Assembly: GCA_035221665.1 (NCBI GenBank)
Contig: CM069155.1
Location: 29,636,001-29,700,000 of the forward strand
DNA length: 64,000 nucleotides
Reading direction: 5' to 3'
Source of the DNA: Okamejei kenojei
Lineage: Eukaryota
Numbering within the stretch: the stretch's first letter is position 1; each line of letters opens with the position of its first letter. The notes under the pieces are model-generated. The model did not search any database and was not told the origin of the DNA. It worked only from the letters and a program-made list of their open reading frames with translations. Of the stretch, positions 13,232 through 63,249 are shown in pieces. Made by a program: the position numbers and the translations under genes.

Positions 13232-13393
13232 GTTTAAAGTAAGAACTGCAGTCGCTGGAAAAAAATATGGAGAATCTCAGCCGGTGAGGCAGCACCTATG
13301 GAGCGAAGGAATGGTTGAAGTTGCGAGATCAGTCTAAAGAAGGGTCTCGACCCGAAACGTCACCCATTCCTTCGCTCCATAGATGTTGCCCAT
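13232..13393. mobile_element. Short Penelope-derived hammerhead element, head-to-head form, with TSD
   Basis: 12-bp TSD ACATTACCTATC at 13220-13231 and 13394-13405. Core ctaaagaagggtctcgacccgaaacgtc at 13334-13361 has a G-to-A change in CTGA. Confidence 0.8.
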
Positions 13394-13529
13394 ACATTAC
13401 CTATCTGTTGGCCTTGCTCTTTCAAATTTGTTTCGCTGTTTCGACACTTTTATTCACATAAAATGATTTAAGTATTTTTATCTACCACATCCCATTAGTT
13501 ATCAATTTAATAATTTGCAAGGTTATGCG

Positions 13530-14385
13530 CTGATAGGAAAATAATAATTAATATTGTTCAATTACTTGTGTATCTGGGCATCTGTGATCTGAAATTGAGT
13601 GTGTTTTGTTTTTAATGTTCTTGTTTTGTCCATGCATTTGTTAATTTCTGTACTTTATATCGCCCTCACCGCTTTAAACTGAACGGTGTCCATTCCAATT
13701 CCTACACCGTTTTCCCTCACACCTTGCTTTCTCTTCCACTCTGACCCCGCTCTGTATTTTATTTTGTTTCCCGCCCTCATGGACATCCTTTCTTTGTTTC
13801 TCTCCACCACTCTGTTTCTCTGCAATTCTCTGTTTGTTGGCTTTACGCACCGGGAAATAGAGATTACCCCGAAGCAGAGCCAAAGACCGTTTGGGCATCA
13901 ATTTGTTAAACATTTGTGGATTATTCACATGGTGGAGCCAAACAAAAATAGCAGATGTTTCAGTAATCTTAGCTATTATTTGTATTATTTTATTTCTCAG
14001 GGCAACGTAAATTTACTTTTTAATAGTTTTTTTAAAATAATTTATTTCAATGTACCTACTACTTTGGAGTCTCACGGTGCAATTATTTACAATTCGCTAC
14101 CTATGTATCACCCCTATCAAAACGAATTACGACAACTAGCACTACATTAAAATAAATGTAGCTGTCAGCACTCTGTGCCTATGTTTTCAGAATAACGCCA
14201 ATTCTCCTCACTGCTTATATATTTTGAAATATCAGGACCTCTCTAAGCGGTGGAATTGTGCCCCGAACTTCCACAATCTTAACACATATCCAAAAGGTCG
14301 GTGTACCAAATAATGAATTTGCAGAAAAAAATAGATACTTCTCTCATGTAGAATGAAAACGAAACAGGAATTAACTAATACTGTA
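13530..14385 (+). repeat. Non-coding paralogous block, copy A (continues at 17558-17665)
   Basis: Colinear, roughly 70-75% similar by eye to 29250-29926 plus 33768-33926, e.g. gtactttatatcgccctcaccgctttaaact vs gtactttacatcgccctcattgctttaaact. Confidence 0.85.
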
Positions 14386-15420
14386 CTTCAAATTGAAGAA
14401 ATCAATGTTCATACCGTTGAGTTGTAAGCTGCGCAAGCGAAATATGAGGTGCTATTATTCCAATTTGCGCGTGGGCTCATTTTGAGCGATCCAGGACAGT
14501 AAACTCAGCGTGGAAATGGGATGGAGTTGTTAGGTATTCATGTTATCTGGCCTACACTTCTTCCTACCCTGTCACTTTCAAAATACCCTATTCCCTACTA
14601 CCAATTCCCCTGTCGCCGCTGCTTTTTCTCCCAAGATGAGATGTTCCAGACTAGAACATCAGAGATGTCCTAATTCTTTAGGGAACTAGAGTTCCGCCCT
14701 TTTATCATAAATTAGACCATCAGACGTGTCGCATTTGGATCCACCAGTTCCGCACTTGTTCCCAAGCCCCACAGTCGCGACAGGGACAGTGATTATCCTC
14801 CAAAATGTTCTTCACCTCCAAACTAGTCACAACTTCCCATCCCCCCCCCACCTTTCTGTGTTCCGCAGTGACCATTCCCTTCGAAACTCTGTGGTTCATT
14901 CATCAGTTCCCATCAAAACCACCCTCTCACCAGGGACTTCCCCTTGCAACCGCAGAAGAAGCAATCCTGTCCTTATACCTCCCACCTCGACTATATCCAG
15001 GGACCCCGGCAGTCGTTTCAGGGGTGGCAGAAGTTTACTTGCACCTTCTCCACCTCATCTATTGTTCGGTGTGGGCTCCTATAGATTGGCAAGATGAAAT
15101 ATGAACTTGGTGGTCGTTTCGCTGAACACGTATGCACAGTCCGCCATGGCTTACGGGATATTCTGGTTGCCGAAACATTGTCCATCCCATTGAAGAATGG
15201 TCTCGACACGAAACGTCACCCATTCCTTCTATCCAGAGATGCTGCCTCTCCCGCTGAGTTACTCCGGTTTTCTTTGATCTATCTTCCCGTACTGACTATT
15301 CTGTCCTGTCGTCGTCAGAGTGAGGCCACACGCAAATTGAAAGAACAGCACCTCATATTTCGCTTGGGCAACTTTCAACCCAGTGGTATGACTATTGATT
15401 TATCTAATTTCAAGCTACTC
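14385..15420 (+). mobile_element. Penelope-like element fragments (inverted 5' piece, RT C-terminus, GIY-YIG), with a nested hammerhead module at ~15190-15280
   Basis: FRSDHSLRNSVVHS, PCNRRR, LGGRFAEH and RKLKEQHLIFRLGNFQPSGMTID; same family as 37770-38768. Confidence 0.85.
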
Positions 15421-15743
15421 TTGCACCCCCCCCCCCCCATCCTTGTACCCTAAGCCGTTCCACTTGTGAGGCCCCTCCCAATCCCCTACCCCGACGACTT
15501 GAGGAAGATGGTCCACCAGATTGACACCGATTTGCAGCCGTGGCCAATGAAATAAAGGGCTGTAAAGCTGTGTTTATTTATTTATTTATTACCAGTGCCA
15601 GTGTCGAGTTATTGGCTTAAAACACTATTTTTCTGAAATGGAGGGCAAGGAAAATTACTGAAGTGTTGTTGAGAGACTACAGTGCGCTGTGACAGCATGT
15701 GTAAGAAAGGCCTATGACAGTGTCAGAAATATTATACACCTTT

Positions 15744-16100
15744 CAGGGCTCTCACTTAATTTTTTTTTCGGGGCAACCTTGGCAGCTTTTAAAGTTGCCA
15801 AATGACAGTTTAGGTGGTCATTTAAGACGGCTTCCATGACGCGTGCGATAATGTGCTCGGACGAAGTGCATAGTTACCAGTCCGAATTATGCTCAATGAA
15901 GTATTCACAAATTATTTCTACTTCAAATAAAGTCACAAACTAAACATATTCACCAATCAATACATGATATATACCACAATGACATGCAGCAAAATTATAA
16001 TGCAATACCTCAACTCTTTTACATGTTGCAATGAATGCGATTTCTACTATTTCTTTCAACTTCCAACCAAAAATGTGGTTGGATTATTCAGCGTATGATC
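15744..16100. mobile_element. Possible non-autonomous DNA transposon fragment
   Basis: Abrupt start CAGGGCTCTC resembles hAT-type termini. No matching TIR or ORF was found. Confidence 0.25.
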
Positions 16101-16540
16101 AACCTCGGTGAGACCAAGTGCTGGTTTGGCGATCGCTTCGCACAACACCTCCACTCAGTTCGCAATAACCAACCTGATCTCCCAGTGGCTCAGCACTTCA
16201 ACTCCCCCTCCCATTCCTATCCGATCTTTCTGTCCTGGGCCTCTTCCATGGTCAGTGTGAGGCCCACCATAAATTGGAGGAGCAGTACCTCATATTTCGT
16301 TTGGGCAGTTTACACCCCAGCGGTATGAATATTGAATTCTTCAACTTCAGGTAATCCCAGATTTCTCCTCCCCTTCCCAGCTCTCCCTCAGCCCACTGTC
16401 TCCGCCTCTTACTTTCTTCTACCCGTCCCCCCCACCCTCACATCAGTATGATGAAGGGTCTCGCCCCGAAATGTCGCTATTCCCTTCGCTCCATAGATGC
16501 TGCCTCACCCGTTGAGTTTCTCCAGCATTTTTGTCTACCC
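16100..16540 (+). mobile_element. Penelope 3' end (GIY-YIG C-terminus and pLTR with mutated hammerhead core at 16448-16475)
   Basis: GETKCWFGDRFAQHLHSVRNNQPDLPVAQHFNSPSH followed by the hammerhead module. Confidence 0.85.
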
Positions 16541-16599
16541 ATTCACACAAGTTCTGTTATCCCACTTTCCTCACCCACTCCCTACACATTAGGGTCAAT

Positions 16600-17377: not shown

Positions 17378-17984
17378 GTGAGCTCCATCCTTCCTAAAGT
17401 AATCTGTTGCCAGCCCTGATTTATTCTGGCCTTATCATTTACAGTTTCCACCCCCACCTCTTTCAGTCTGAAGAAGGCTTCCGATCCGAAATATCACCTA
17501 TTAATTTTCTCCAGAGATGCAGCCTGACTCGCTGAGTTATTCCAGCATTTTTGTGTCTACTGTCGGTTTATAGTTGCTTAGCTAAATTCCTCCCTATCCA
17601 TGTATTTATTTTTGGGATTAATGTATTGTTGGTCAGTCAATGCATCGATCGCCCATCCCTATCTGCCATTGAGAAGCTGCTGATAACCTACCTTGATGCT
17701 GTCTGACCTGCTGACCTACTTCGGCTTTTTATGTTTATCTTCAGCAACTATAATCCTGTGATGCCATTCATGTTAAATCCAAAGGTTGGATCAACGAAGT
17801 GTGAAAGATCATATAGTTCCAAGCCTTGATGTGCTTGTATGTTACATTGCCGACAACTACATTATTATGCAGAAGATAAACACAAAATGCTGAAGTAAAT
17901 CAACGGCCAGGCAGAAACTATGGACACATGGGATAGGCGGCAACTTCTGCATCAAGCACCCAATGCAAATAAGCACCTGTAGTT

Positions 17985-18660: not shown

Positions 18661-18669
18661 TTTTACAGA

Positions 18670-19985
18670 GAAACATAGAAACATAGAAAATAGGAGCAGT
18701 AGAAAGCCATTCGGTCCTTGGAGCCTGCACCACCATCCAATATGATCATGCCTAATCATCCATAATCAGTACTCCATTCCTGAATTGTCCCCCATATCCC
18801 TTGATTCCGTTAGCCCTAACATCTATATCTAACTCTCTTGAAAACATCCAATGAATTGGCCCCGACTGCCTTCTATGGCAGAGAATTCCACAGATTCACA
18901 ACACACTTTGTGAAAACGTTTCTCCTCATCTCAGTCCCAAATGGCCTACCTCTTATTCTTAATCTGGTTCTGTTCACCCCCAACATCGGGGGGAAAAAAT
19001 CTGCATCTAGCCTGTCCAAACCCTTCAGAATTTTATATGTTTCTATAAGATCCCTTCTCATCCTTCTAATTTCAGTGAATTCAAGCCCAGTCGTCTCATT
19101 CTTTCATCATATGTCATTCCCACCATCCCGGAAATTACCCTGGTGAACTTACGCAGCACTCCCTCAATAGGAAGAATGTCCTTCCATACATTAGGGGATC
19201 AAAACTGCACACAATAGTCCAGTTGTGGTCTCATCAGGGCCCTGTACATCTGCAGTAGGACCTCCTTGCTCCTATACTCAAATCCTCTCGCTATGAAGGC
19301 CAACATGCCATTTCATTTCTTCACTGCCTGCAGTGAAGGATGTACAAGGAAATCCAGGCCTCGTTGCACCACACCTTTTCCTAATCTGATACAATTCAGA
19401 TTATAATCTGCCTTTTTGTTCTTGCCAGCAAAATGGATAACCTCACGTGTATCCACATTATACTGCATCTGCCATGTATCTGCCCACTCACCCAACCTAT
19501 CCAATTCAACCTACAGCCCCATACCACCCTCCTCGCAGCTCACACTGCCATCCAGCTTTGTGTCATCCGCAAACTTGGAGATGTTACTTTTAATTTCCTC
19601 ACCTAGATCGTTAATATATATTGTAAATAACTGGGGTTACAGCACTGAGCCTTGCAGCACCCCACCAATCATTGTCTGCCATTCTGAAAAGGACCCGTTA
19701 ATTCCTTCTCTTCGCTTCCTGCCTGCCAACCAGGTATCCATGTCAATACCCTGCTCCCAAAACCATGTGCTCTAATTTTGACCACTAATCTCTTGTGTGG
19801 GACCTTGTCCCAGGCGTTTTGAATGCCCAGATACAACACATCAACTGGCTCTCCCTTTTCCATTCTACTTGTTACATCCTCAAAAGTTTCCAGAAGATTA
19901 GTCAAGCATGATTTCCCCTTCATAAATCCCTGCTGACTTTGTCCGATCCCTTCATTGCTTTCCAAATACGCGGCAATTACATATT
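18670..19985 (-). mobile_element. CR1 LINE 3' portion (RT to tail)
   Basis: QGFMKGKSCLTNLLE, DKVPH, WQMQYNVD and RRDLIETYKILKG on the minus strand. Microsatellite tail (gaaacata)n at the left end. Confidence 0.9.
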
Positions 19986-20449
19986 TTATAATTTAATAAT
20001 TTTAAAGTGGAGGTTGACAGATCCTTGATTGGTACAGGAGTACGGATATAAGATGAGAATGGTGTTGAGAGGTTAAGATAGATCGGCCATGATAGAATGG
20101 CGGAGTAGCTTTGATGGGCCGAATGGCATAATTCTGCTCCTAGAACAATGAATTTATGAACTTATGAATTATGTGTCTGGTTCTTGAATGCCTTGGTGAC
20201 CATTTTGTTGAGGATATATGTAAGGGGACCGATTAGAATGCATTCTGTAGACGGCACAGACCGTGGGCTTGTTGCACTTGTGGCAAAGAGAGACAAAGGA
20301 TGGGATTATGTCATTGAAATAAAAACTTAATCCTGTAAAATGTCGGACTTCTTGAATGTTGTCGGAGCAGAAACCATCACGTGTGGCAAGGATATCATCA
20401 CAGCCATATTGCTCTTTTTTGAGCAATATCAGACAAGTCTTGAGAATTT

Positions 20450-20708
20450 GGTATTGAGTGGGGAACTGTAATGAGATTGAATGGAGATAGATTATTTTGG
20501 TTCCAACACGATCTTTATTGTAGAAAATACGAGAAAATATTAATGAAGCAGTAAATCTCACGCCTTTACGCTCATTAAACCTGAACTGATATAAACGGCG
20601 GTTAATAATAAGAAGTCATATGAATTTCTGCTCTTCCAGGTTTCTGTTTGCTGCAGCTGGTCTGGGGAACTCGAGTCCTGGCACCTTTCGGGGTCATGAT
20701 CTAATGTG

Positions 20709-20777
<69 letters not shown>

Positions 20778-20992
20778 GAAGGTGAGTTCTGTGAGCTGGA
20801 TCGAAACATTCATTTATACAATCAATAAATCTGATCTCGACACAAAAGTAAACTCCGCTTTAAAACTAATTTTCTTCTTTGTACTCAAGAAACAGTGAGC
20901 TATTTATTAAATCAAGGGCCGAGCTAGTCTCGTATATCTCATGAATTTAGATATCCTAATAGACATCTGGAAGTGTAGTGGGGTCAACGCTG
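20450..20992 (+). repeat. Non-coding block duplicated at 22725-23270
   Basis: tattgagtggggaactg / tattgagtggggagctg, atgaatttctgct and taaatcaagggccgagcta / taaatcaagtgcccagcta occur colinearly in both copies. Confidence 0.85.
20712..20775. repeat. (TC)n microsatellite, about 32 units
   Basis: Direct reading. Confidence 0.97.
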
Positions 20993-22716
20993 AAACAAAG
21001 AGTAGGAATAAATGGCGAGTGTACTGCCGAAAGGCTCCGTGCTAGGACCGCAACTATTTACAATATGTATTAATGATTTAGATGATGGGATTAAAAGTAA
21101 CACTTACAAATTTGCAGATGCACAAAGTTGGGTGGCAGTGTGAAGTGGAAGAGTATGCTCGGATGTTCCAGGGTGACTTAGACAGGTTGAGTGAGTGGGC
21201 AGATGCATGGCAGATGCAGTATAATGTAGATAATTGTGAGTTTATCCACTTTTAGCCACAAGGAGGCAGATTATTATCTCAATTGTGTCATATTAGGAAA
21301 AAGGGAGTGCAGCGAGACCTGGGTTTCCTTGTACACCAGGTAGTGGAGCAGGCAGTGAAGAAAGCTAATGGCATGTTGCCCTTCATAACGAGAGGATTTG
21401 AGAAGAGGAGGAAAGAGGTCCTTCTGCAGTTGCACAGGGCCCTGGTGAGACCACATCTCGAGTATTGTGTGCAGTTTTGGTCTCCTAATTTGAGGAAGGA
21501 CATCCTTGCTATTGAGGCAGTGCAGCGTAGGTTCAATCCCAGAACCAGGGGCCACAGTCTAAGAATAAAGGGTGGGGGGGGGGGGGGTGAATTTAAAAGT
21601 TAGATAGAGCTCTCGGGGCTAGTGTAATCAAGGGATATGGGGAGAAGGCAGGCACGGGTTACTGATGAGAAACAAAGAGTAGGGATTAACGGGTCCCTTT
21701 CAGAATGGCAGGCAGTGACTAGTGGGGTACCGCAAGGCTCAGTGCTGGGACCGCAACTATTTACAATATACATAAATGATTTGGATGAAGGGATTCAAAG
21801 TAAACATTAGCACATTTGCAGATGACACAAAGCTGGGTGGCAGTGTGAGCTGTGAGGAGGATGCTATGAGAATGCAGCATGACTTGGACAGGTTGGGGGA
21901 GTGGGCAGATACATGGCAGATCCAGTTTAATGTGGATAAATGTGAGGTTATCCACTTTGGTAGCAAAAACAGGAAGGCCGATTATTATCTAAATGGTGTC
22001 AAGTTGGGAAAAGGGGAAGTACAACGGGATCTGGAGGTCCTTGTTCATCACTCAATGAAAGTAAGCATGCAGATACAGCAGCAGGCAGTGAAGAAAGCGA
22101 ATGTCATGTTGGCCTTCATATCAAGAGGAGTTGTGTATAGTAGTCTGCAGTTGTACAGGGCCCTAGTAAGACCTCACCTGGAGTATTGTGTGCGGTTTTG
22201 GGCCACTAATTTGAGGAAGGACATTCTTGCTATTGAGGGAGTGCTGCGTAGGTTTACAAAGTTAATTCCCAGGATTTCAGGACTGTCATATGCTGAGGGA
22301 ATGGAGCGGGTGGGCTTGTATACTCTGGAATTTAGAAGGATAATGGGGAATCTGATTGAAACATATAAGATTATTGAGGGTTTGGCCACGCTAGAGGCAG
22401 GAAACATGTTCGCGATGTTGGGGCCAGGGCCAGAACCAGGGGCCACAATTTTAAAAATAAGGGGTAAGCCACTTAGAACGGAGATGAGGAGACACATTTT
22501 TACACAGAGAGTTGTGAGTGTGGAATTCCTCTGCCTCAGAGGGTGGTGGAGGCCGGTTTTCTGGATACTTTCCAGATAGAGCTAGATAGGGCTCTTAAAG
22601 ATAGCGGGGTCAGGGGATATGGGGAGAAAGCAGGAACGGGGTACTGATTGGGAATGATCAACCGTTGTCACTTTGAATGGCTCCGGCACCTATCGTCTAT
22701 TGTCTATTGTCTATTA
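20993..22716 (+). mobile_element. Two tandem CR1 3' fragments (20993-21665, internally deleted; 21668-22716)
   Basis: ORF 21776-22579 has [27 protein letters not shown] and GLYTLEFRR. Tail (ctattgt)n near 22697-22715. Confidence 0.92.
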
Positions 22717-22724: not shown

Positions 22725-23270
22725 TATTGAGTGGGGAGCTGAAATGAGATGGAATTGAGATAGATATTTTTGTTTCCAAGACCATCTTTATCATAGCAAA
22801 ATACGAAAAAAATACTCATAAAGGAACAGATCTTACGCCCTTTTGCTCATTAAGTCTTAACTGCTAATAACAATGAGTCACATGAATTTCTGCTTTTCTT
22901 GATTCCTGTTTGCTATGGCTAGTCTGGAGCACACTCCGTTCCTGGAATGTCTTCTTCTTATCGAGTCCACACACAAGATTAGAGGTTGTATACAATGGTG
23001 TCTGTCTTGTCGCTTCTTGTGCTTCTTGTGCGTGGTGGTGGAAAGATTGGTGGAAACAGGGCCGCGGCGTGAACGCTCTTTCCTTGACCCCAATGAATAA
23101 GTATGATCTAGAGAGAAAGGGTAAATATGTTATAGAATTAGCCGTTTATCATGGTACCCAAATGGCGAGGGTTATTGATTAAATCAAGTGCCCAGCTAAT
23201 CGCAGACGTCTCTAGGAAAGAAATAGGGATATACCAATACACATCTGGGCGTGCAGTGGTGTCAACACTG
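22725..23270 (+). repeat. Second copy of the 20450-20992 block, about 2 kb upstream of IgL cluster A
   Basis: Colinear similarity by eye to 20450-20992. Confidence 0.85.
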
Positions 23271-25254: not shown

Positions 25255-25374
25255 GTGAGTATTATACGTGCCCGGACAATCGATTTATTTCCGTGCACCA
25301 TTAAATTGTGATCTTCTCTCACACTTCAACTATCTTATTGATTTTATATTTTTCTGATCTTGATCTTTTCTCAG

Positions 25375-25716
25375 ATGTAAACGCGGCAATTACTATAAGT
25401 CAACCGACTTCGATGTCCACCTCTACGGGACAGAACATGCAAATAACCTGCACCATATCGGGCTCCAGTTCAGGTGGTAACTATGTCTCCTGGTACCAAC
25501 AGATCCCTGGCAAAACTCCAAAGTATTTAATGTACTATTATTCCGGCAGCATTGACAAAGGCACGGACATTCCAGACCGTTTCTCCGTCTCAATGTCAGG
25601 CAACACTGCAACATTCGCAATATCTAACGTTCAAGCGGGTGATGCTGCAGACTATTACTGTGCAAAATGGGATAGTGGTTTACATTTCGGTAAAGGAACG
25701 AGGCTGGGTATTGGTG
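25375..25716 (+). CDS. IGL: Ig light chain cluster A, germline-joined VJ exon
   Basis: Acceptor ttttctcag. Reads ITC, WYQQ, DYYC-AKWDSGLH-FGKGTRL. GTAAGT donor at 25717. No RSS or spacer between V and J. Confidence 0.97.
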
Positions 25717-27218
25717 GTAAGTGAAATATATTATTTGAGTGGCGCCATGGATTATTTTGTAAATTTAAGTGAAGTGTTTGCTGAATTAACGTCGTAATTC
25801 ACGCAAAATGGAGGAACAGCAACTCATATTTCATTTGACCAGCTTACAATCCAGCTGTAAGACTACTGATTTCTCTAACTTCAAGTAACTTTGAAGTTAG
25901 TCGTTGTAATAGTTTCAATGTTTTCCTGGTGAGTTGCATTGTCTGTAACTCGTTTTCACCGAGGCCACAGTTAAACATGGGTTAATTCCTTTATCGTCGT
26001 TATTTTTTTGCATATCTTTCTATCATTTTTCCTTATCTCTTATATCACCGTCTATATATCTCGCGTTCCTTTCCCCTGAATCTCAATCTGAGTAAGGGTC
26101 TCGACCCGAAACGTCGCCTATTCCTTTTCTCCAAAGATCCGCTAAGTTACTCCAGCGTTTTGTGCCTATCTTGATTTTGCCAGGTTTATCTCGATGTACT
26201 TGGTGCAGTGTATAGATTCCTGCTTTACAGACGCTCAGGCTCCGAGTTCACTAGCTCATAGCTCCGTGAAATAACTGGAAAAGGGAGCTAAAAATCAATT
26301 TCTCAACTCGGCACCCAGTGAACCTTTCGCAGATGAGAGCCACATTTCTACCTCAGAGCCATTTCAAATTATTCAGGACCCGAACAAGACTAGGCCATTC
26401 GGGCCCTACGCCCTCAATATTAGAGAAGAAATCGCGCACCTGTGATTCCAAGCTTTATGTGTGTTTACAGTTCACATTTTACCAATTTATTTAGGCTGTA
26501 CTTCAAGAACTTGAATGTTCTCGAAAATGTGAGGCGACTCTCCAATTTTTCATTCCCGACCATTAATTATCGCGTGTTTCCCAATGCTAATTATTGGCAC
26601 TATTTTTCTGGATTTTAGCGTAGTCATGTATATTGGGATTGACGTAGAATTGAAGTGCCCCCTAAATAAAATGCGGGTTGTTAAATAATTTGCAGAAGTA
26701 TTCACAGCGAAATTTTTCAACTCGCGAAAATAATTGTCCAGATTGCTTGGTTAATGGGGGTCAGCAACGTTGACATTCAACTTTGCTGAAATTCTGGTTG
26801 ACATGTCTAACGGGTATATCGTTTCTCCTCAAAATGTGAAAAGAGAACGTTTCGCACATTTCCCTCAGGAAATAGGTTGCTTTTGTTTAAACTGGAGACG
26901 TGTAGTGAAAATCACTTTTATAAAGTTATATTAATGTGTTCTATTTTATAAAACTGTACAGCCATAATATATCACAATTGTTTCCGTGTTGTTTATGGAT
27001 AGGACAGACAGCATCTATCCTAGTTGCTTTCACGTTGTTTATTCATTGTTTATCCGATTTTAAGAAACACACACACATACACAATTGTTTGAAATGGGTC
27101 GAGAATAAAACGATTTTCTACAAATGAATAAATTAATGCTCTAATGTGATGAATTTTCTGAAATATGATATCTCGACGATAGCAATTCTCCAATTAAACG
27201 TGACTTCTTGTTAAACAG

Positions 27219-27542
27219 ATCCTCGAGCACCGATCGTGACGGTTCTCCCGCCTTCCGCTGATGAAGTTACCTCAAAGGGCACCGCCACTCTGGTTTGTTT
27301 GGTGAGCGGCTTTAACCCGGGTTCGGTGGTCGTTGAGTGGACAGTCGACGGCGGTACAAAAAATAGCGGCGTTGAGACCAGCCCGATCCAGCAGGATAAG
27401 GACAACACGTTCAGTCTTAGCAGTTACCTGACTCTGCCAGCCTCAGACTGGAATTTACACGAGCTTTACTCCTGTGTGGTTAAAACACCAGACTCAGGCA
27501 AACCCACTTAAGACAAATATCGTGAGATCCAGCTGTATCTGA
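27219..27542 (+). CDS. IGL: Ig light chain cluster A, constant exon (lambda-like type II); +1 frameshift at 27482-27485 as written
   Basis: ag|AT CCT gives DPRAPIVTVLPPS...ATLVCLVSGFNPG...YSCVVK. Removing one A from TAAAAC restores HQTQANPLKTNIVRSSCI-stop (TGA 27540-27542). AATAAA at 27807-27812. Confidence 0.9.
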
Positions 27543-28963
27543 TGTTGGAAACGTGAGGCTGACCTGACAAAGTTAGTTTATCATCATTGGGTTCGTCCAT
27601 GTGACAAAGTTAGTAATGTATTGGACTTTGGTGCTTTCGTTCAGAAATGCCATTTGTAGTTGACACTTCGATTTTTACGATTTGTTCACTTTAAATGTAG
27701 TTCTTTCGAAAGAATAACGTTTTTGAATGAACATCAAGTAGATTCAATTGCGTTAGCCAAAAGCATGGATGTTGCTATTGTACCCATTGTATATTTGCAG
27801 CCGTTGAATAAAGTTTTAAAACGCATTTCAAATGCATTGTTGATTTCCTTTGTTATACTTCTGACCCGAACCATGATGGCTTAACATGGGTTGTGTTCTC
27901 TCGTAGATTTGAGCTACCAACACTGATTTTTGTTTCTCTATTTCGATCGCTAATTACAATCACACAACAGTAGTGAACCACTCGTCGATTTATACCATGC
28001 GTTCTACAGCGCTTTGTCAGTTCGTGTGCAACATTAATCAGACAAAGATCCGTGTAAACCAAGCATGGCAAACGTGGTCTTAATGCGAAAAATATCACAG
28101 AAATAAACAGAAAATACTATTAATTCTCAGTAAGTCGGGCGGCACGTGGGAAGTGAGAAATAGATTAGACGTTTCAGTCTGTTGTTAGACATAATTTAAA
28201 AATTATGTCCTTACCAGCATTCAGGGATTGTCAAATATGTCTTCGTTCATACACCGTTATATAATTAAATAAAATGCGTGTGCATACCTGGAAATCTGGA
28301 AATTTGAAAACGCCATTAATTCCCAACATATTAGCAAGTTTCTGTAAACGGATGGGTTGTTTCGCACCTCCACTTTACACTCCTCGCACCGAGCATGGCA
28401 CCTCCATCCTTTATCACAGAAGACTGTCACTTTCACACTAATCGGTGACGCGGTTTGTATTTAAATATTTACAAACATTACACTTTATTTCTTCCGATTG
28501 TCAGCTTTAACGAAACAGGGTGATTATTGGCGTTAGCAGAACAGGTACTGAGTTTGTATGTGGCGTGCACGTGTCTCACGGTGGTATCACACTGGAAATG
28601 GGCAACAACACTCTCAATAAAGCAGGATAATGTCTTCAGAAAGATGCGATGAGTGCACGGCAGCTTCATATAGACACGTGAGAAAAAGAGAGAGAGAGAG
28701 AGAGAGGAGGGGGGGGGGTGAGAATAGAACGGGGGCGGGGTTAAGAGCGAACAATAAGGGAACTATTTGCTATAGTAAGAGGACAAGCAGACACGGACAA
28801 ACCCCTACCTCTGTCACAAATCGCTTTTCACTTATTCCAAGACTTATTCCCAATTATTTTCACGTTACATGAGCAACCTGGGCTTAGGTCTTAATGAATC
28901 GGAAGAATCGGAATGCAGATGCTGGTTTAAACCAAAGATAGACGATTTATTCGAATCAGCAAA

Positions 28964-29215
28964 AAATGCCTACAATCCGGATCATTTAGAAAAGGTAAGA
29001 CACAAACAGCTGGAGCAACTCAGCGGGTCAGAAAGCATCTCTGGAGAAAAGGAATCGGTGACGTTTTGGGTCAAGGCCCTTCTTCAGACTGTCTGAAGAA
29101 GAATCTCGATCCGAAATGTCACCTATTCATTTTCTTCACAGATACTGTCTGACCCGCTAAGTTACACCAGCTTTATGTGTCTACCTTTTCTAAATGATCC
29201 GGATTGTAGACATTT
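28964..29215. mobile_element. Palindromic head-to-head pair of hammerhead modules with inverted outer 34-bp arms
   Basis: Minus core 29060-29087 and plus core 29093-29120. 28964-28997 is the reverse complement of 29182-29215 (33/34). Confidence 0.85.
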
Positions 29216-42593: not shown

Positions 42594-42621
42594 CTGAAGA
42601 AGGGGCTCGACCCGAAACGTC
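42594..42621 (+). ncRNA. Minimal hammerhead ribozyme motif (Penelope pLTR type)
   Basis: CTGAAGA-A-GGGGCTCGACCC-GAAACGTC: conserved CUGANGA, GAAA and UH boxes are intact. Confidence 0.7.
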
Positions 42622-44846: not shown

Positions 44847-44960
44847 GTGAGTTCCTTTTTTCATCAAAATTAGTTTTCTCCTCGAGTGCTTCTCAGCGGG
44901 AGGTTTCTCTCGTGTTTTAATTACAAATCATTGTTATCACTGTACTCTTTATTTCCCCAG

Positions 44961-47046: not shown

Positions 47047-47228
47047 GACCGAAGATAGACACAAATGCCGGAGTAAATCAGTGGACCAGAGAATCCGCAT
47101 CTCCGGAGAGAAGGAATGGGTGACGTTTCGAGTCGAGAATAGTTCTGATGCCTGTCCCGCTGAGTTACTCCAGCATTTTGTCTATCTTCGGTATAAACCA
47201 GCATCTGCAGATCCTCCCTACATATTAC
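47047..47228. mobile_element. Short head-to-head Penelope-tail element in the J-C intron of cluster B, with TSD
   Basis: 13-bp TSD TGAGATTTTATTA at 47034-47046 and 47229-47241; partial minus-strand hammerhead (gacgtttcgagtcgag). Confidence 0.8.
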
Positions 47229-47426
47229 TGAGATTTTATTAAGGTAATGTTTGATTTATCCCGAAATCCTCATTGTAAATTATATTTCAGTAGCTAGATA
47301 CACGATGTGAATGTATTATTTTGAAGCGGGTGGACGTAAAGGCTATTACATTGGTTATTACATTGACCTTTGATCCGAAAGTAGTGCTTCAATTATTATT
47401 TAGCTGCGATCTTTTTTTAAAACCAG

Positions 47427-47749
47427 ATCCTCGTCCCCCTGCCGCATCCGTTTTACCACCTTCAGCAGATGAGATGAGAGTAAAGGGCACCGCCACCCTG
47501 GTGTGTTTGGTGAGCGGGTTTAATCCGGGTGCTGTGGAAATTCAGTGGACTGTGGACGGCAGTGCGAGAAGTGATGGCATTGAGACCAGCCGGATCCAGC
47601 AGGAGACGGACAACACGTTCAGTGCGAGCAGTTACCTGACTCTACCAGTCTCAGACTGGAAATTACACGAGCTGTACTCCTGTGTGGTTAAACACGAGAC
47701 TCAGGCAAACCCAATTCGGGTGGATATCGCGAAATCCAGCTGTATGTGA
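47427..47749 (+). CDS. IGL: Ig light chain cluster B, constant exon (lambda-like type II), intact
   Basis: aaccag|AT. Reads PRPPAASVLPPS...ATLVCLVSGFNPGAVEIQW...YSCVVKHETQANPIRVDIAKSSCM-stop, with both domain Cys and the penultimate interchain Cys. AATAAA at 48025-48030. Confidence 0.97.
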
Positions 47750-50022
47750 AATGGAAATGTGCTAATCGAGAGAGTTTGTTTATCATGATTATTTTCTTTT
47801 ATTTGATGCAATGTGGAAATGTATTGGTCTCTGGAGTATTACATTTACCAGCTACATTTCGCACGTAAAGCTTATTTTTTATGACTTGCTCACTTTAAAG
47901 CTATTCTGTCGACAAAATACCAGTACTATTTACAGCCTCAAGTTTAATTAATATGAGTTTAGTACATCCAAATACTTGGCAAATGCCAATATGTGACCTT
48001 AGTGTTGTTTGCAGCCTTTGCGAAAATAAATAAACGAATCTTAAATGCAATGCAATAGCCTTTTTTTTCTAATGCAAAATATGTTGACCGGGAATTAGAA
48101 TACTTTTGATGTTTCCACCCTTTTTTCTTTGGAACCGATCTCCTCCCAATGTACAGTGGATGATTAATTTGAATCCTGTAATTATAATCAGCCTCGGTTA
48201 GTTGTAATGCGATACCGCGTACGACTGTGGGTACCAGGAAATGTGGGAAAGGTATTTGACGATGGCAGTCATTAAACAACATCAGTTTGATAGCAGCCCT
48301 GCCAACATGTTCTACGTCAACACAGATGAAGCACTGAATCCACAGAACACTTAGTCTTAGTAGGAAAAAGAACCACAATCTTATTTTTCCTGCATCGCAT
48401 TCTCCTATTCGTCCAGAGACTCAAATTCGCACCAAATACCTCCAAAGATTAGTTTTTGAAATAAGTATTTTCTGCCCATTGACGTTTTAACACAATCCAT
48501 TTGTACATTTACAATTAGCCAATGAGACTCAATTCAATTTAAAAAAGATGAAGATTAACTAGTCAATAAAATTCAATCGATCCAGATAACACTTTTTTTT
48601 AATATAGCAGAAGAGATAGAATCCACGGAAGATACACAGAGCAGGAGCAGTATAATTTTTCAGTGAGTGGAGGACAGGTCATGTAAATGTTGTGCACATC
48701 ACACTCAGTTATTTACAGCGCTGTGGCTATAAGCTCGATTGATCAAATAATTAGGGAACGGCCACCACTATGTCCGTCTAATACGCTATTGTTGCTACAC
48801 GCACGTTTAAATTAACTTTACATTAATTTGCATGCTGGTTAACATCTTTAGGATTGCCTATATTTTCATTATGCGGAGGTCCCGTGTTGGGCTTAGGAGG
48901 AAGGAATACGAAGATGATCATCGCCTATGAGAACCAGGGACATAGTACATTTGTAAAAATACATTTTGAAGGAATCATACAGTCATAGTTATGCAGCATG
49001 AAAACATAGTTCAACCCGTTCATGCCATTCAATACATCCATCGAAGCTCCTCCAATTTGCCCGGTTTCAATCTAGACCTTTCCTGTCTGGATATAATGAA
49101 TGCAAAGAAAGCACTGCCGATTAATCTGGTAGGAGAACTATGCACTTGTAATAAAACACAGGATACCAGAAGGACGTCTCCGTTCTCTGAATGGATGTTA
49201 TAAAGTGAAACATGGCAGTAACGGAAAGAATTAGCAGAATAGCACGCTGACAGAAAATAATGATTAGAAATTGGCACAACATATCTTCCGCTTAATGTGA
49301 AAAGACAATGTTTCAACTAAAATAACGTGTTTTTTAATTTTCAAGCTCGTCTGCTTCTTCGGCAAAACTGGGCGGCAACTTCCCAATAGTCGTCAAGAAA
49401 GGAGTCTCACAGAGTCTCTGACCAGAAGGGTCCATTCGCATACCGTCGGGAGGTAGAGAATGCTTCGCCACAACACCACTTGTCCCAATACACAGAGCAT
49501 TAACATGCATTTACGATTCATCTGTACGAATACAACGCACAATGATCTTTAATTTATTTTGCCTGTAGGTAATTCAGTGGGGCACATATTAAACAAACCT
49601 TTCGATTTGCAGGCTGGTTCGCTCTCCACGTGTAGCTGGTTTGATCTACTCGGGATAAAAGCCAGAGGAGCAAACTGCGTGATTATAGATGGGAGGGGCG
49701 AGGTTTCACCAGTGCAGTGCGTCATTGTGTGGATTATCTATCAATATATCTTCTATGATAGAGAAGAGTCGAATAGCTCAAATGTAGTATTAAATGCTCT
49801 AAATAGTAGCGTAAAGCCACATAATCAGCGAACTCGCGAAAGTTAAAGCTGACTGGACAACTGGTTGACATTTGCTAATTCACCGTATCAGATAGCATCA
49901 TTGAGACATACGGAGAACCGACGGTTAGGGTCGGGATCTTACTTCAAACTGATTGTCGTGCGCGGGGGGGGGGGGGGTGGTCTGACAGAAACGTGGGATT
50001 GGTGCTGCAAAGCTAGGTAAGT

Positions 50023-51348
50023 CATAGAAACATAGAAACATAGAAAATAGGTGCAGGGGTAGGCCATTCGGCCCTTCGAGCCGACTCAGTATCCTGTACC
50101 TGCCTTCTCTCCATACCCCCTGCCTGATCCCTTTAGCCGCAAGGGCGACATCTAACTCCCTCTTAAATATATCCAATGAACTGGCCTCAACTACTTTCTG
50201 TGGCAGATAATTCCACACACTTCACCACTTTGTGTGAAAAAAAAATCTCATCTCGGTCCCAAAAGACTCCCCCCTTATCCTTAAGCTGTGACTCCTTGTT
50301 CTGGACTTCCCCAACATCGGGAACAATCTTCCTGCATCTAGCCTGTCCAACCCCTTAAGAATTTTGTAAGTTTCTAGATCATCCCCCTACAATCTTCTAA
50401 ATTCTAGCGAGTACAAGCCGCGTCTATCCAGTCTTTCTCATTATGAAAGTCCTGCCATCACAGGAATCAGTTTGGTGAACCTTTTCTGTACTCCCTCTAT
50501 GGCAAGAATGTCTTTCTTCAGGTTAGGAGACCAAAACTGTACGCAATACTCCAGGTGTGGTCTCACTAAGGCCCTGTATAACTGCAGTGGAACCTCCCTG
50601 CTCCTATACTCAAATCATTTACTATGAATGCTAACATACCATTCGCTTTCTTCACCGCCTGCTGCACCTGCATGCTTACTTTCAATGACTGGTGTACCAT
50701 GACACCCAGGTCTCGTTGCATCTCCCCTTTTCCTAATCGGCCACAATTCAGATAGTAGTCAACTTTCCTGTTCTTGCCACCAAAGTGGATAACCTCACAT
50801 TTATCCACATTCTACTGCATCTGCCATGCATTTGCCCATTCACGCAGCCTATCCAAGCCCTTGCAGCCTCCTAGCATCCTCCTCACACCTAACACTACCC
50901 CCCAGCTTCGTGTCATCCGCAAGCTTGGAGATGTTGCATTCAATTCCCTCGTCCAAATCATTAATATATATTGTAAATATCTGGGGTCCCACAACTGAGC
51001 CTTGCGCTGCCCCACCAGTCACTGCCTGCCATTCTGAAAAGGACCCGTTTACTCCTACTCTTTGCTTCCTGTCTGCCAGCCAGTTCTCTATCCACATCAA
51101 TACTGAACTTCCAATACCGTGTGCTTTAAGTTTGCACATTAATCTCTAATGTGGGACCTTGTCGAAAGCCTTCAAAAATTCCAGATATAACACATCCACA
51201 TGTTCTCCCTTATCCACTCTACTAGTTACATCCTCGCAAAATGCTATAAGATTCGTTAGACATGATTTACTTTTCAAAAATCCATGCTGACTTTGTCCAA
51301 TGATTTCACTACTTTCCAAATGTGCTGCTATCCCATCTTTAATTACTG
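50023..51348 (-). mobile_element. CR1 3' portion
   Basis: QHGFLKSKSCLTNL, KAFDKVPH, LADDTKLGG; (catagaaa)n tail at the left end. Same subfamily as 35487-36637. Confidence 0.92.
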
Positions 51349-52027
51349 ATAGATGCATACATGTGAATGAGTTTGAATTGCAGCTAGTTGGACATGTGCT
51401 AGGGATGAATACAGACAGACGGCTGTGAGATAATAAGGAAGGCGTGAAATGTTGAGCCAGAGGAAGGAACAGCGGTGGATGGGGGCAAGGAGAGGAAGGG
51501 GAGGCGGGATAGAGGGTGAAATTAGCGTGAATTCAGGTGGAGCATAGCAACCGGGTGGGTGGTAGAGGGAGGGGGGTTTGGTGACGGGGGCGGGGGATGG
51601 GGTATGTGTATGGAGGAACTGCCGATGCTGGTTTAAACCGAAAACAATCACAACAAGAAGTAACTCAGGGGTCGGGCAGCATCTCTGGAGAAGAAAAATA
51701 GAGGACGCTTCCGTTCGAGACCCTTCTTCAGACTGACATTCAGGGAAAAGGGTAACTTATATTTGGATAATTCAATGTTCATACAGTTGAGTTGGTAAGC
51801 ACCAACGAGAAATGTAAGATGTTCTTCCTCTATTATGCGTATGGCCTCACTCTTGCAATGGAGGAGTCTCAGGACTGATAGAAAGGCATAGGAATGAGAA
51901 TATGACCCATCTGGGTGTACACCCATTTCTCCCACTATTCCATGTGCCCCGAAGATGCTGCCTCACCAGCTGAGTTACTGCATCACTTACTTTTTATGCA
52001 AACCAGCATGTGCTGTTCATTGTCATC

Positions 52028-52702: not shown

Positions 52703-54261
52703 GCGTATACGTTCGGAACTATTCACTTTCGCAACTGTTATATCCTTACTCCTTATCGCACACATTTTGTAGTTTCCACACAGACCTTTGTCCAACCATT
52801 TGCCAATCAACCCACCCCGCCTTATCTATATCCACCAATCCTTGCCAGATTCTGTCCCGCCAACAGCCCTCTTCCAACGTAAAGTGGAGATTGACAGGTT
52901 CTTAGAGAATGGAGGTGAGAGGTAAAATAGATCAGCGATTATAGAATAGCGAAGCAGGTTCGATGGACCGAATGGACTAATTCTGCTGCCACGTCTTATG
53001 AATTAATCACCCCCCATCCCCACTACAATCCGAAATTTGAAGAAGGGTCCAGACCCAAAACGTCGCATATCCATGTTCTCTAGATGTGATGGTTCACCCA
53101 CTGATCTACTTCAGCACTTGTGTCTTTTATTTGTAAGGATTTATGCCGGTCGTAAGGATTTGGGAATAACCCCGATTCTGCTTTTGTTTGCACCCATGAT
53201 TCTGATAAACGCTTATCTCTGACAATAGCACGAATTGTGTACCAAGCAATTACTAGATTCTGTATGAATTTTAAAATGCAATAAACATGCATATCTGATT
53301 GACGTAAAGTCTTCAAGATTAGTTTTCAAATCCAATAACCTGCAAACTATCTAAAGCTTCTATGTTAATTAGTCAATTTCCGACGCCCAAATTTGTTTTA
53401 TGTGATTCTTAAAAACAGTAATAACCTTAAGTAAAATTGTATAACATTCATTTGGTTTGGTTCTACTTTCCCTGGCGTATTATGCACCCTCCGGAAACAA
53501 TCATCTGCAGCAAACAAACCACCACGCGTTTTGTGGAGTAGCACTCGGATATTGGAGCCGAGATTCTCAATTATCTTGAGCCGATGCTTCGATCGCTAGA
53601 AATCATGTTCCCTGAATTATTTCCCTCGAAGTTCCTTTTTGTGGAGTAACAAAAATGCATAGGTGAAACTTTGTCATGTTTGTGTCCAGTTCCCATAGTG
53701 ATCAAGGACACCTTTTGGTATTTTTATGTATACAATCTATTTGCCAGATCTGTGTCGTCTTAATTGACCATTGGCTGTCACATCTGGTCTCCTTAAGTAT
53801 CATCAGCACTGATTTCCGGTCAAATTCGAGCCTTCATTAAAGTCATTTAAAGGTATGTAAAAGAGTTCAGGGCACACACCCATACCCGCGACGGAACAGT
53901 TTGCATTACAAACCAGAACCAGACCTGATTATGCCTAGTCTCGGTTACCGGACAGCTGGCTTTCGATTCACCATAGATATGACCTCTGCACCGCGCGCTT
54001 TGATTTTTCTGCAACACGTTGTTGCTCCGGCACGTTATCCTAGAAAATCTGAGTGCATGCACCACTATTCTTATTTTGACAATGCACATCAATTCTTCAA
54101 ACAATTCTAATACATTAGTCAAGCGTAACCTTACGCCAACGTAAAGGACAGCTTTAAGGACTGCATCGGTGCTTTTCATCCTGCACTCAAATTTATTTGG
54201 ACCATCTCCGGCACCTCCCTCCCCTTTCTTGATGTCACAATCTCCATCACAGGAAATAGAC

Positions 54262-54358
54262 CAGTCTGAAGAAGGGTCTCGACCCGAAACGTCGCCTATC
54301 TCATTCGCTCCTTAGATGCTGCTGCACCCGCTGAGTTTCTCCAGCTTTTTGTGTAACC
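54262..54358 (+). mobile_element. 97-bp solo hammerhead mini-element nested in a Penelope ORF
   Basis: Perfect 14-bp TSD CACAGGAAATAGAC at 54248-54261 and 54359-54372. Confidence 0.9.
54266..54293 (+). ncRNA. Minimal type I hammerhead ribozyme motif, consensus copy
   Basis: CUGAAGA-A-[GGGU CUCG ACCC]-GAAA-CG-UC, with a palindromic ACGU helix III and a GUC cleavage triplet. Confidence 0.78.
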
Positions 54359-55649
54359 CACAGGAAATAGACTATTGACTGACGTCTATTACAAACTCAC
54401 TGACTCACACAACTATCTCGACTACATTTCTTCCCAACCTGCTTCCTGCAAAGGCTCTATGCCCTACTCCCTATTCCCCTATCTACGCCGCATCTGCGCC
54501 CAAGATGAGGTATTCTATACCAGGGCATCCGAGATGTCCTCATTCTTTTGAGAACGGTGGTTCCCCTCTTCCATCAAAGATGAGGCTCTGACTGGTGACT
54601 CCTCGGTACCCCGCAGCTCCACCCTTGCTCCCCCTCCCCCTAGCCACAACAGAGACAGAGTCCCGCTAGTCCTTACCTTCCACCCCATCAGCTGTCGCAT
54701 ACAACACATAATGCTCCGATATTTCCACCAGCTCCAACGGGATCCCTCCACTAACCACATTATCCTATCTCCACCGCTTCCACCTTCCGCAGAGACCGTT
54801 CCCTCCGCAACTCCCTGGTTAACTTATCCTTTCCCAGCCAAACCATCCTCTCCCCAGATACCTTACCCTGTAATCGCAGAAGATGCAACACCTGTCCCCT
54901 ATACCTCCTCCCTCGTCTCTGTCGAGGGCCCCCCACAGTCCTTTCAGGTCAGGCAAAGTTTCACTTGCACCTCCTCCAACCTCATCTACTGTATCCGTTG
55001 TTCAAGATGTGGACTCTTATACATCGGTGAGACCAAATGTAGACTGGGTCATCTTTTCACAGAACACTTTCACTCAGCCCGCCTGAACCGACCTGATCTC
55101 CCGATTACCGGACACTTTAATTCTCTTTCCCATTCCTACACAGAACTCTCTGTCCTAGGCCTCCTCCATTGTCAGATTGAGGCTAAACACAAATTGGATG
55201 AACAGCATCTCATAATCCGCTTGGGCAGCTTACAGCCCAGTGGTATGAATATTGATTTATCTCACTTCAGGTAGCCCCGGCATTCCCTATCTCGCTATCC
55301 CTCCCTACCCAAGTCGCACTAGCTTCTCGTATTCACCCGACAAACAGCTAACAATGGAATACATGTTTCCTTTATCATCTTTACTTTTTTGCATATATTT
55401 TATTCATTGTTCTTTATCTCTCCACATCATCTTCTATATCTCTCGTTTCCCCTATCCCTAACCAGAAGAAGGGTCTCGTCCCGAAATTGCAAGTCAGTTA
55501 ATCCAACGTCAGAGGTAGGGGATTTAAAAAGGCTTTCCTTTCCAATTGATGATCAGCATGACTTGTTGGTGGCAGATTTTTGTCTGACGATGTGAAATTT
55601 AAAAACTGATAATTAACATATTCATGAAGGCAGTGGCGTTAACGCCGTT

Positions 55650-56190: not shown

Positions 56191-56276
56191 GCACGTGCAT
56201 AAAATATAAAAGGGTGCACAAAAGACTGGAGAAACTCGTCGGGTGCAGCAGCATCTAAGGAGCGAAGGAGATAGGC

Positions 56277-56304
56277 AACGTTTCGGGCCGAAACCCTTCT
56301 TCAG
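56277..56304 (-). ncRNA. Hammerhead motif on the minus strand within a mini-element (~56212-56305)
   Basis: Reverse complement CTGAAGA-A-GGGTTTCGGCCC-GAAACGTT; helix II is kept through a G-U pair; GUU triplet. Confidence 0.7.
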
Positions 56305-56549
56305 AACCCTTCTACGTGCCCTCCACTCCCGACCCTCATAAAATAAATGATCATCTGGTAGTTCTAAATCTATGTTGAGCCTTACTATCTTACTCCGGCT
56401 ATTATGTTCTGTGTTTTTCATGCCGCTGCTTTGAAGTATGCACGTTCCAGCGCCAGGCGGGGCTTCTTCACGTAATCCTTCATCGTTACTCCTCATAAAA
56501 TAACGATCAAACTTCGAACTGGTAAGTTCTCGTTTAATCTTACTATTAT

Positions 56550-60474: not shown

Positions 60475-60562
60475 TATAAGGGTCACGATCCGAAACGTCG
60501 CCCATTCCTTCTCTCCATAGATGCTGCCTCACCCGCTGAGTTCCTCCAGCATTTTTGTCTAC
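60475..60562 (+). mobile_element. 5'-truncated solo hammerhead mini-element with TSD
   Basis: 14-bp TSD TCACTCTTGCTAGA at 60461-60474 and 60563-60576; contains aagggtcacgatccgaaacgtc. Confidence 0.88.
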
Positions 60563-61829: not shown

Positions 61830-61930
61830 GAATCTGGCAACTTCTGATTGGCGCAACGCGCATTCTGATTTGTCTGTTGACTGGATACATAAGGAACACG
61901 CGGTGACGCCTTGTCACACGGTTCATAAGC
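61830..61930 (+). promoter_or_regulatory. IgL cluster C promoter: CCAAT retained, octamer degenerate
   Basis: GAATCTGGCAACTTCTGATTGGC and AACACGCGGTG are shared with promoter A; the octamer position reads GGATACAT. Confidence 0.7.
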
Positions 61931-61984
61931 GACCGGGAGACAAGCAGTTTACCAGGGGTCCTCCGCTCAATCAATTACTGTACA

Positions 61985-62033
61985 ATGTCTTGTCGGATCT
62001 TGGCACTCTATGCGTTAGCTTTCTCCGCAGTTT
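61985..62033 (+). CDS. IGL: Ig light chain cluster C, leader exon (MSCRILALYALAFSAV)
   Basis: 49 nt, phase 1, GTGAGT donor at 62034. Confidence 0.93.
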
Positions 62034-62158
62034 GTGAGTATTTTACTTCCACCGACATAATATTTAATCTCGAATACGATTAAAAGTTTCTATTGCTGAT
62101 ACTTCTGTTGTTTATCTAATAATAGTTAATGCTCTATATTTTCTGGTTTGTTTTCCAG

Positions 62159-62503
62159 GCATAAATGCGCTAGTTACACTAAATCAGCCACCTTCAATGT
62201 CCACGTCTCCGGGGCAAAACGTGGAAATATCCTGTATCGTGACTGGTGGCAATTTAGGTAGTAATTATGCTTCCTGGTACCAGCAGATTCCCGGAGCGGT
62301 TCCGCGGTTTCTGTTCTACTATTACTCGGGCAGCAGCATTACTAGAGGCTCGGGAGTTTCTGACCGTTTCTCCGGATCAGTGTCAGGCAACACTGCAACA
62401 TTGACAATAGCGAATGTGCAGTCTGCGGACGCTGCGGACTACTACTGTGCTGCGTGGATAAGTGCTTTATTCTTCGGCAAAGGAACGAGGCTGGGTATTG
62501 GCA
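62159..62503 (+). CDS. IGL: Ig light chain cluster C, germline-joined VJ exon (C exon presumably beyond the window)
   Basis: Acceptor ttttccag. Reads ISC, WYQQ, DYYC-AAWISALF-FGKGTRL. GTAAGT donor at 62504. The J-C introns of A and B are 1502 and 2118 bp; only about 1497 bp remain in the window. Confidence 0.97.
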
Positions 62504-62794
62504 GTAAGTAAACTATCTTCTACCTATGGTTTATTGATACAGCTATGATTTTTTTTTTTTTGTCGCTGATTGATGTTTCCATTAAAAGGCGTTTAAAGCT
62601 GATTTTTAAAGAATACCCGACTAAGATCGAATCTCCTTTGGCAAATTTGTTGACAACATCAATGAAAGGACGAAATGACTGTGCAGCTGTTATCTTTTTA
62701 TTTCTTAATTACTTTTCGGACGATGAGCTAACAATGACCAAGCCAGGGTACGAATAAAACCGACCGTATGGAAACGCGAATTGACAATAGAGTG

Positions 62795-63249
62795 ACAAGG
62801 AGTTTGTACGTTCTCCCCGTGACTGCGTGGGGTTTCTCCGAGATCTTCACTTTTCTCCCACGCTCCAAAGACGTACAGACGTGTACGTCTGTATACCAGA
62901 GATGCTGCCTGACCCACTGAGGCACTCCAATGCTTTTTGGGTGTTTTGTTTTGCAAATCAGCATCTGCAGTTCCTTGTCACTGAAGGGTCTCGACCCGAA
63001 ACGTCGCCTATCTCCTTCGCTCCTTAGATGCTGCTGCACCCGCTGAGTTTCTCCAGCCTTTTGTGTACCCACTCTAATGTGAATTCGCGTTTCCATACGG
63101 TCGGTTTTATTCGTACCCTGGCTTGGCTCGGTATAAATGTAAATTGTCCCTAGTGTGTGTAGGGTAGCGTTAATGTGCGGGGATCGCTGGTCGGTGCGGA
63201 TTCGGTGGGCCGAATGTCCTGTTTCCGCGCTGTATTTCTAAACTAAACC
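62795..63249 (+). mobile_element. V-SINE split by Penelope-tail/hammerhead modules and an inverted copy of upstream intron DNA
   Basis: V domain 62798-62880; CR1-type SINE tail 63127-63249 ending in (taaac)n; truncated core gaagggtctcgacccgaaacgtc at 62983-63005. Confidence 0.8.

Follow-up and report, generated by a model that had tools for sequence, protein, structure and literature searches.

What are the roughly twenty hammerhead-like motifs scattered over a 64,000-nucleotide (nt) stretch of the Okamejei kenojei genome (GenBank assembly GCA_035221665.1, contig CM069155.1, positions 29,636,001 to 29,700,000 of the forward strand; hereafter the window), and do they still work as ribozymes? 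We conclude that the motifs are real, that they belong to a class already published, and that they are mostly inert in the window. In the reading that we prefer, to which we give a probability of about 60%, they represent the minimal hammerhead of the pseudo-long terminal repeat (pLTR) of a Neptune-type Penelope-like element (PLE); most are decayed stubs of 90-130 bp, likely made by reverse transcription (RT, also used for the transcriptase) of uncut RNA with a putative 5′ end just before the catalytic core, with folding predictions that place the ribozyme in an off state unless assisted. Motif positions are counted from the C of CUGA (+1), with the predicted cut after +28; coordinates are those of the window, and single minus-strand coordinates give the leftmost position.

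Hammerhead motifs in the window and in the genome

A first-pass annotation had placed about 20 hammerhead motifs across the locus, and all 21 coordinates that it listed hold the motif or a remnant of it. Scored against the 28-nt reference motif at 54266-54293 (the 28-mer) with a threshold of at most 7 mismatches, 19 of the 21 sites match, compared with no match in each of eight shuffles; 40489 and 47122(-) are weaker remnants with 9 mismatches each. Positions 60478 and 62983 mark the start of the surviving part of their copies, the core registers being 60472 and 62978. The catalytic core is unbroken at three sites (42594, 54266 and 56277-56304 on the minus strand) and broken at the other 18. 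These three had been called intact, which holds for the core; 54266 is the sole window copy that combines an intact core with a 4-bp helix II and a 2-bp helix I; 42594 has a 3-bp helix II and lacks helix I, and 56304(-) has a helix I of 1 bp. The cut expected after 54293 is in the correct register as a position, cleavage itself being predicted. Checked against hammerhead models, the window gave no such match: an Rfam scan returned five matches at E up to 1, none of them to a hammerhead model, and its three microRNA matches were dismissed as chance or head-to-head hairpins. We infer that the window copies are inert.

The exact 28-mer occurs 48,215 times in the 2.76-Gb genome (reversed control, 0). 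A 1-Mb sample (100 stretches of 10 kb at round coordinates) held 16 exact copies and 240 at up to 7 mismatches, 32 intact motifs by a structure descriptor (0 decoys), and 432 downstream segments (0 decoys). Extrapolated to the genome, these figures correspond to some 660,000 motifs that are recognisable and some 90,000 that are intact. Since 240 matches per Mb predict 15.4 for the window and 19 were found, the window is not enriched, and we rejected both local enrichment and a role in the immunoglobulin (Ig) locus. Same-strand neighbours are scarce (12 gaps of at most 300 nt among the 240 hits, without a regular period). Tandem arrays with a hammerhead in each unit, which mark non-LTR retrozymes, were not found among the 240 hits; a few short local tandems were seen elsewhere in the genome.

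The parent element

Using the window's RT-endonuclease fragment as query, we obtained 137 scored matches, from which 20 loci with long open reading frames (ORFs) were taken and 13 were parsed. Two loci, L061 and L062, are intact pLTR-ORF-pLTR elements with a single 1,185-aa ORF, the exact motif on both sides and pLTRs of 99.8% identity; a further locus, L068, is a tandem. In the intact elements 235 nt separate the stop codon from the motif downstream of it, and about 160 nt separate the motif from the ATG, in line with the Penelope pLTR origin proposed in the first-pass annotation. The RVT_1 and GIY-YIG hits of the L061/L062 protein fall below curated cut-offs; its GIY-YIG domain is C-terminal and carries a CCHH motif, and homologues of the protein have both domains. 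The organisation is thus that of an endonuclease-bearing (EN+) PLE, with one ORF that joins RT to a C-terminal GIY-YIG with CCHH, and it also shows the partial tandem pLTRs, inverted 5′ copies and 30-40-bp tail given as PLE features in PMC8557442. The linker between RT and endonuclease reads CX4CxxC and fits the CX2-5CxxC pattern common to Neptune and Nematis (PMC8557442); the sequence supports a Neptune-type element, the choice between Neptune and Nematis resting on the linker and on vertebrate distribution.

Several subfamilies with 3′ untranslated regions (UTRs) of 93-237 nt have the motif in common; in 19 of the 23 ORF-linked copies listed, 93-237 nt lie between the ORF end and the motif. 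A bamboo shark protein is 70% identical to that of the element; no relative was found in viral contigs. Two further observations concern L061. Within its N-terminal half the intact protein (L061:3815-7369) contains about 300 aa of proline-rich inserted sequence, and it exceeds most relatives (650-1,130 aa) in length. After the motif a hairpin is predicted (L061:3700-3770), and an 8-9-bp helix would join the region near +50 to the tail, a candidate RT-binding structure.

Ends of the copies and the RNA template

The 3′ ends of young copies fall at +90 to +97 in 32 of 59 and at +126 to +134 in 19 of 59, with +93 and +126 to +130 preferred, and so 65 or about 100 nt beyond the cut site. With two such preferred sites, the motif therefore lies 65-100 nt inside the element end. 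It had been described as ending the Penelope copies at 16448 and 55463, which does not hold: at 16448 the element continues to 16540, 65 nt beyond the cut, and the 55463 copy is broken inside the motif. The distance between the two 3′ ends equals the optional 30-40-bp tail, and in PAc, a Poseidon element of the green anole, such a tail is flanked by the two internal sites at which RT starts (PMC11167929).

At the 5′ side, the 11 bases upstream of the motif are kept in 10,779 of the 21,573 exact 50-mers of the youngest subfamily. Among the first 100 of these as listed, compared by eye and including one locus pair that is possibly a duplicate, 49 lack the 11 bases, 5 as point mutants and 44 as truncations; the 44 begin at most 9 nt upstream of the core, 37 of them at 0-4 nt. 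Target duplications of at least 8 bp flank 16 of 28 plain stubs among the young copies listed and 27 of 136 plain stubs of all ages, for which shuffled pairs gave 0-6. The 136 belong to 247 core-bearing copies of all ages, in which a further 69 have a head-to-head arm and 42 keep a 3′ UTR (about 51 when corrected, the UTR recognition library being incomplete and about 9 plain stubs carrying UTRs absent from it).

Starts at -3 were counted in 3,580 copies (one test base), and there is no clear excess of starts at the cut site (176 at +29, 144 at +33 and 49 at +25; four test bases). When 12 apparent cut-site starts were inspected, 5 proved to be indels in full copies, 5 fold-back arms and 1 a partial core, leaving 1 clean start. 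Because starts show no excess at the cut site, uncut RNA appears to be the usual template. A few symmetric fold-back insertions (L230-L234) have arms that meet at the predicted cut site via a short palindrome; the control for these is not comparable.

Homology and folding of the hammerhead

The core of the PLE minimal hammerhead (CUGANGA, GAAA, UH and a palindromic 15.2-16.2) is present in the pLTRs of the active family and in 3 of the 21 window copies. Helix II has the expected 4 bp, bulge and G-C closing pair, with covariation across related elements only. The 28-mer hardly varies among 217 copies grouped in 8 clusters: its changes fall in the loop or at CpG sites, and none is two-sided. The earlier statement that helix II varies while keeping its pairing was accordingly too strong, the variation consisting of a one-sided change from U-A to U-G plus loop changes; the covariation that it called for is missing among the copies of this genome and appears as two-sided changes among related elements. 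Helix I is short: among the 32 intact copies it has 2 bp in 22, 3 bp in 4 and fewer in 6, the third pair forms in 17% of 216 copies, and the 4-5 bp or so typical of PLE minimal hammerheads is not reached by these copies.

Of 80 related metagenome loci, 29 have enough sequence past the ORF, and 14 of these carry the motif within 700 nt; the hits comprise 21 distinct sense and 5 antisense motifs, with 0 decoys. Helix I has 3-6 bp in 20 of the 21, although the descriptor, which requires helix II, does not demand it. For alignment we took the 12 of the 21 with an alignable helix II length, helices II and III being selected for; together with 4 host sequences they give 90.6% paired cells, compared with 23-38% in a slid control, and two-sided changes in 8 of 10 pairs. 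Since the relatives show the motif, a longer helix I and two-sided changes, the comparison supports homology to minimal type I hammerheads. The first-pass interpretation is therefore upheld in part, standing on pLTR origin and hammerhead homology and falling on copy ends and helix II pairing. In one related element (L325:1675 and 5099) the core of both pLTRs is of the U3-A8 type, which PMC4209133 reports from schistosomes.

Over 68 copies, the predicted probability of helix II has a median of 0.93 when the RNA ends at +31 and falls to 0.00-0.02 at +45 or beyond; with 40 nt of downstream context it reaches 0.5 or more in 14 of 18 relatives and in 0 of 8 host copies. Helix II is lost in the longer RNA because the core and the GGG are predicted to pair with a pyrimidine run past the cut site. 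These folds predict that the host-family hammerhead is a weak one, its core trapped by downstream sequence. RNAalifold returned no consensus structure for 107 copies, and double-hammerhead energies were discarded as a discriminator, host copies and relatives overlapping.

Proposed mechanism and alternatives

We propose that the element protein would nick target DNA and begin target-primed reverse transcription from either of two internal positions, located 65 and about 100 nt beyond the cut, as the anole element does in vitro. The cDNA would end just upstream of the core, most likely at the RNA 5′ end, where an initiator-like YCAGTCT is found; the initiator pattern is YYANWYY. Putative starts in the 5′ pLTR would give rise to stubs and those in the 3′ pLTR to long copies, a cDNA joined to its target would leave a stub with a duplication, and two cDNAs joined head to head would form hairpins. 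The ribozyme would be off by default, with a rare cut after GUC as a protein-assisted dimer. From the sequence, an RNA start just before the core is likely, as it would account at once for stubs that lack arms, for the shortness of helix I and for the initiator match. It is also conceivable, if rather improbable, that the start lies 1-4 nt before the core and that the 93- and 130-bp stubs are full copies of the RNA front end, with promoter, hammerhead and RT start signals, able to retrotranspose in the manner of short interspersed nuclear elements; the hammerhead, with most of helix I lost and locked off by downstream sequence, would then serve, in several hundred thousand copies, as a signal that is either switched by protein or non-catalytic.

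Several observations weigh against our proposal. Penelope of Drosophila virilis has its start upstream, and helix I is where an intron of that element ends (PMC2377424, PMC4209133); the CAGT ahead of the core is absent in all 21 related-locus hits. The 5′ ends scatter across several bases, the mode of plain stubs being -1 rather than a sharp -3, and a hand count of the first 100 listed (36 G, 42 A, 22 T) gives no clear extra-G cap signature. The folding is nearest-neighbour prediction only, and the start counts at -3 and at +25, +29 and +33 come from patterns of unequal stringency (one versus four test bases). Moreover, 40 of 68 downstream columns vary across subfamilies, two noisy clusters included, while the 28-mer is near-invariant, which suggests that the hammerhead fold is still under selection.

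The spread of 5′ ends and the lack of a cap G would equally fit the alternative that we rank as the main rival, in which the origin is the same and the 5′ pile-up reflects a stop or fold-back of reverse transcription at the near-palindrome TCAG-N-CTGA, or at a bound protein. The inverted arms of 69 of the 247 copies, mostly at most 15 nt from the core and some joined through the palindrome, point the same way; yet 136 of the 205 truncated copies have no inverted arm, and many young stubs stop at 0 to -2, where the palindrome is still incomplete, so that we consider this explanation possible and somewhat doubtful. Splicing has little support. Here CAG/TCTGA would act as splice acceptor, for which Penelope of D. 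virilis offers a precedent (PMC4209133); a donor at the stop codon or over the ATG would be joined to it by splicing or back-splicing, which would bring two hammerheads close together and make retrozyme-like circles. A pyrimidine tract and CAG directly precede -1, donor-like sequence occurs at the stop (several subfamilies) and over the ATG, and at two loci (L184:1422-1639 and L186:1453-1599) an exact ATG-donor junction joins the 5′ UTR to the motif and skips the ORF. These two stand against 1,330 unspliced starts, among many imprecise joins of the same kind, the ORF end is joined to the core in 0 of 205 truncated copies, target duplications directly abut the core in several stubs, and helix I would not lengthen; we regard splicing as very unlikely. 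None of 27 further mismatch loci inspected joined the 5′ UTR at the ATG donor, and no donor-acceptor joint was found among 15 of 206 joints listed, in sequencing-run contigs mostly of uncertain RNA or DNA nature.

The least probable alternative in our view, by a little, is the one implied by the first-pass annotation, that the copies are active ribozymes cutting host or element RNA in vivo as dimers. The invariance of core and helix II across subfamilies would suit it, as would some 32 intact motifs per Mb, the 2-bp helix I also found in D. virilis (PMC4209133) and the protein-assisted cutting of the anole ribozyme (PMC11167929). Against it stand the 18 broken window copies, the 2-bp helix I, the predicted off fold, the rarity of same-strand neighbours within 300 nt, and, at the cut site, the lack of an excess of starts and the single clean start among the 12 inspected.

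Relation to known elements

PMC4209133 describes minimal hammerheads from the pLTRs of PLEs, fish Neptune elements among them, with their solo dispersal and low dimer activity; PMC6765202 and PMC8969392 review the subject. The family shares with the metazoan PLE hammerheads of Xena, Poseidon and Neptune elements (PMC4209133) the CUGANGA/GAAA core, the unpaired base before helix II, the G10.1-C11.1 pair, the palindromic loopless helix III, the pLTR location and the mostly solo truncated copies. It differs in its 2-bp helix I, against 4-5 bp in schistosome families and 2 bp only in D. virilis, in one uniform 28-mer where that source has many covarying families, and in number, 48,215 exact copies compared with about 4,000 coelacanth and 9,000 Xenopus motifs (values for comparison from PMC4209133). 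Like PAc (PMC11167929), it has two 3′ ends a tail apart, an uncut RNA template and no ends at the cut site; unlike PAc, whose ORF starts inside helix II, it has its ATG about 160 nt downstream and a Neptune/Nematis zinc-finger linker. Partial tandem structure, 2-bp helix I and a stretch resembling an acceptor at the 5′ boundary of that helix are shared with D. virilis Penelope (PMC2377424, PMC4209133), although here no genomic evidence indicates use of such an intron. The stubs resemble animal non-LTR retrozymes, short non-coding hammerhead-bearing PLE derivatives, but are dispersed as singles or head-to-head pairs with target duplications rather than in tandem arrays (bioRxiv 10.64898/2026.07.22.740005); that study, which links retrozymes to PLEs, sampled one chondrichthyan.

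In titles and abstract openings of the papers that our searches listed we found no description of this family or of a 5′ pile-up at the core, and Repbase or Dfam may already catalogue the family. Intact young elements together with tens of thousands of near-identical insertions provide a genomic read-out of Penelope transposition: the copies define a 5′-end hot spot and support the view that RT initiates internally on an uncut RNA template, previously known from one in vitro system. For the role of PLE hammerheads, a very successful family with a weakened, predicted-off yet conserved hammerhead makes a good test case.

Penelope copies in the window

13327-13389, plus: stub, core at 13334 with G5 mutated; head-to-head inverted arm 13261-13310
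14581-15411, plus: old Penelope ORF remnant
15191-15271, plus: stub, broken core, within an old Penelope ORF remnant
16092-16540, plus: Penelope 3′ end with ORF end 16092-16348, 93-nt 3′ UTR, motif 16448 (broken core) and 65 nt to the element end
17464-17556, plus: old stub, broken core
25977-26164, plus: copy with 3′ UTR, motif 26088, broken core
29000-29091, minus: left arm of a head-to-head pair, broken core
29091-29180, plus: right arm of a head-to-head pair, broken core
33931-34018, minus: stub, broken core, inverted arm about 34029-34105
35323-35361, minus: remnant of the motif, preceded by a 3′ UTR from another subfamily and lacking its downstream part
37752-38768, plus: fragment of Penelope RT-endonuclease, 86% identical to the intact protein and without a 3′ end of its own
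40399-40486, minus: left arm of a head-to-head pair, broken core
40487-40576, plus: right arm of a head-to-head pair, very degenerate, 9 mismatches
42593-42715, plus: stub with an intact core and a 35-nt tail; helix II has 3 bp, helix I is absent
47050-47138, minus: partial stub without CUGANGA, inverted arm about 47156-47215
49919-49951, minus: old motif remnant
51614-51905, minus: copy with ORF end 51759-51905, shortened 3′ UTR, motif 51731 (broken core) and tail
53038-53123, plus: old stub, broken core
54174-55486, plus: older Penelope copy with ORF remnant 54174-55268 (55% identity to the intact protein) and 188-nt 3′ UTR, broken off inside motif 55463-55486
54259-54358, plus (54245-54372 with duplications): young stub with intact core 54266-54293 plus 65 nt and a 14-bp target duplication, inside the RT region of the older Penelope copy
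56211-56305, minus: stub whose core is intact; helix II closes with U-G, helix I has 1 bp and the cut site reads GUU
60478-60562, plus: stub from +6 (no CUGA), target duplication of at least 11 bp
62983-63070, plus: young stub from +5, directly behind another copy's tail

The head-to-head pair near 29091 forms part of a 253-bp palindrome (28964-29215), its flanks being likewise inverted for about 35 bp.

Other features of the window

A weak match to the CPEB3 ribozyme (23040-23103, minus strand; 24 bits against a gathering threshold of 35) is probably due to chance. A piece of an SGNH/OSK-like ORF lies at 33071-33469 on the minus strand, and remnants of long interspersed nuclear elements with RT and APE endonuclease domains occur at 242-3137 (plus), 8167-11068 (plus), 18666-22681, 29919-31260, 35482-36637 and 50023-51349. 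The window also holds Ig light-chain-like clusters on the plus strand, which recur every 17-20 kb and whose germline VJ joining is typical of cartilaginous fish: three V exons germline-joined to J and followed by a splice donor (25305-25724, 44921-45316 and 62068-62511), and C1-set exons at about 27208-27716 and at 47294-47749.

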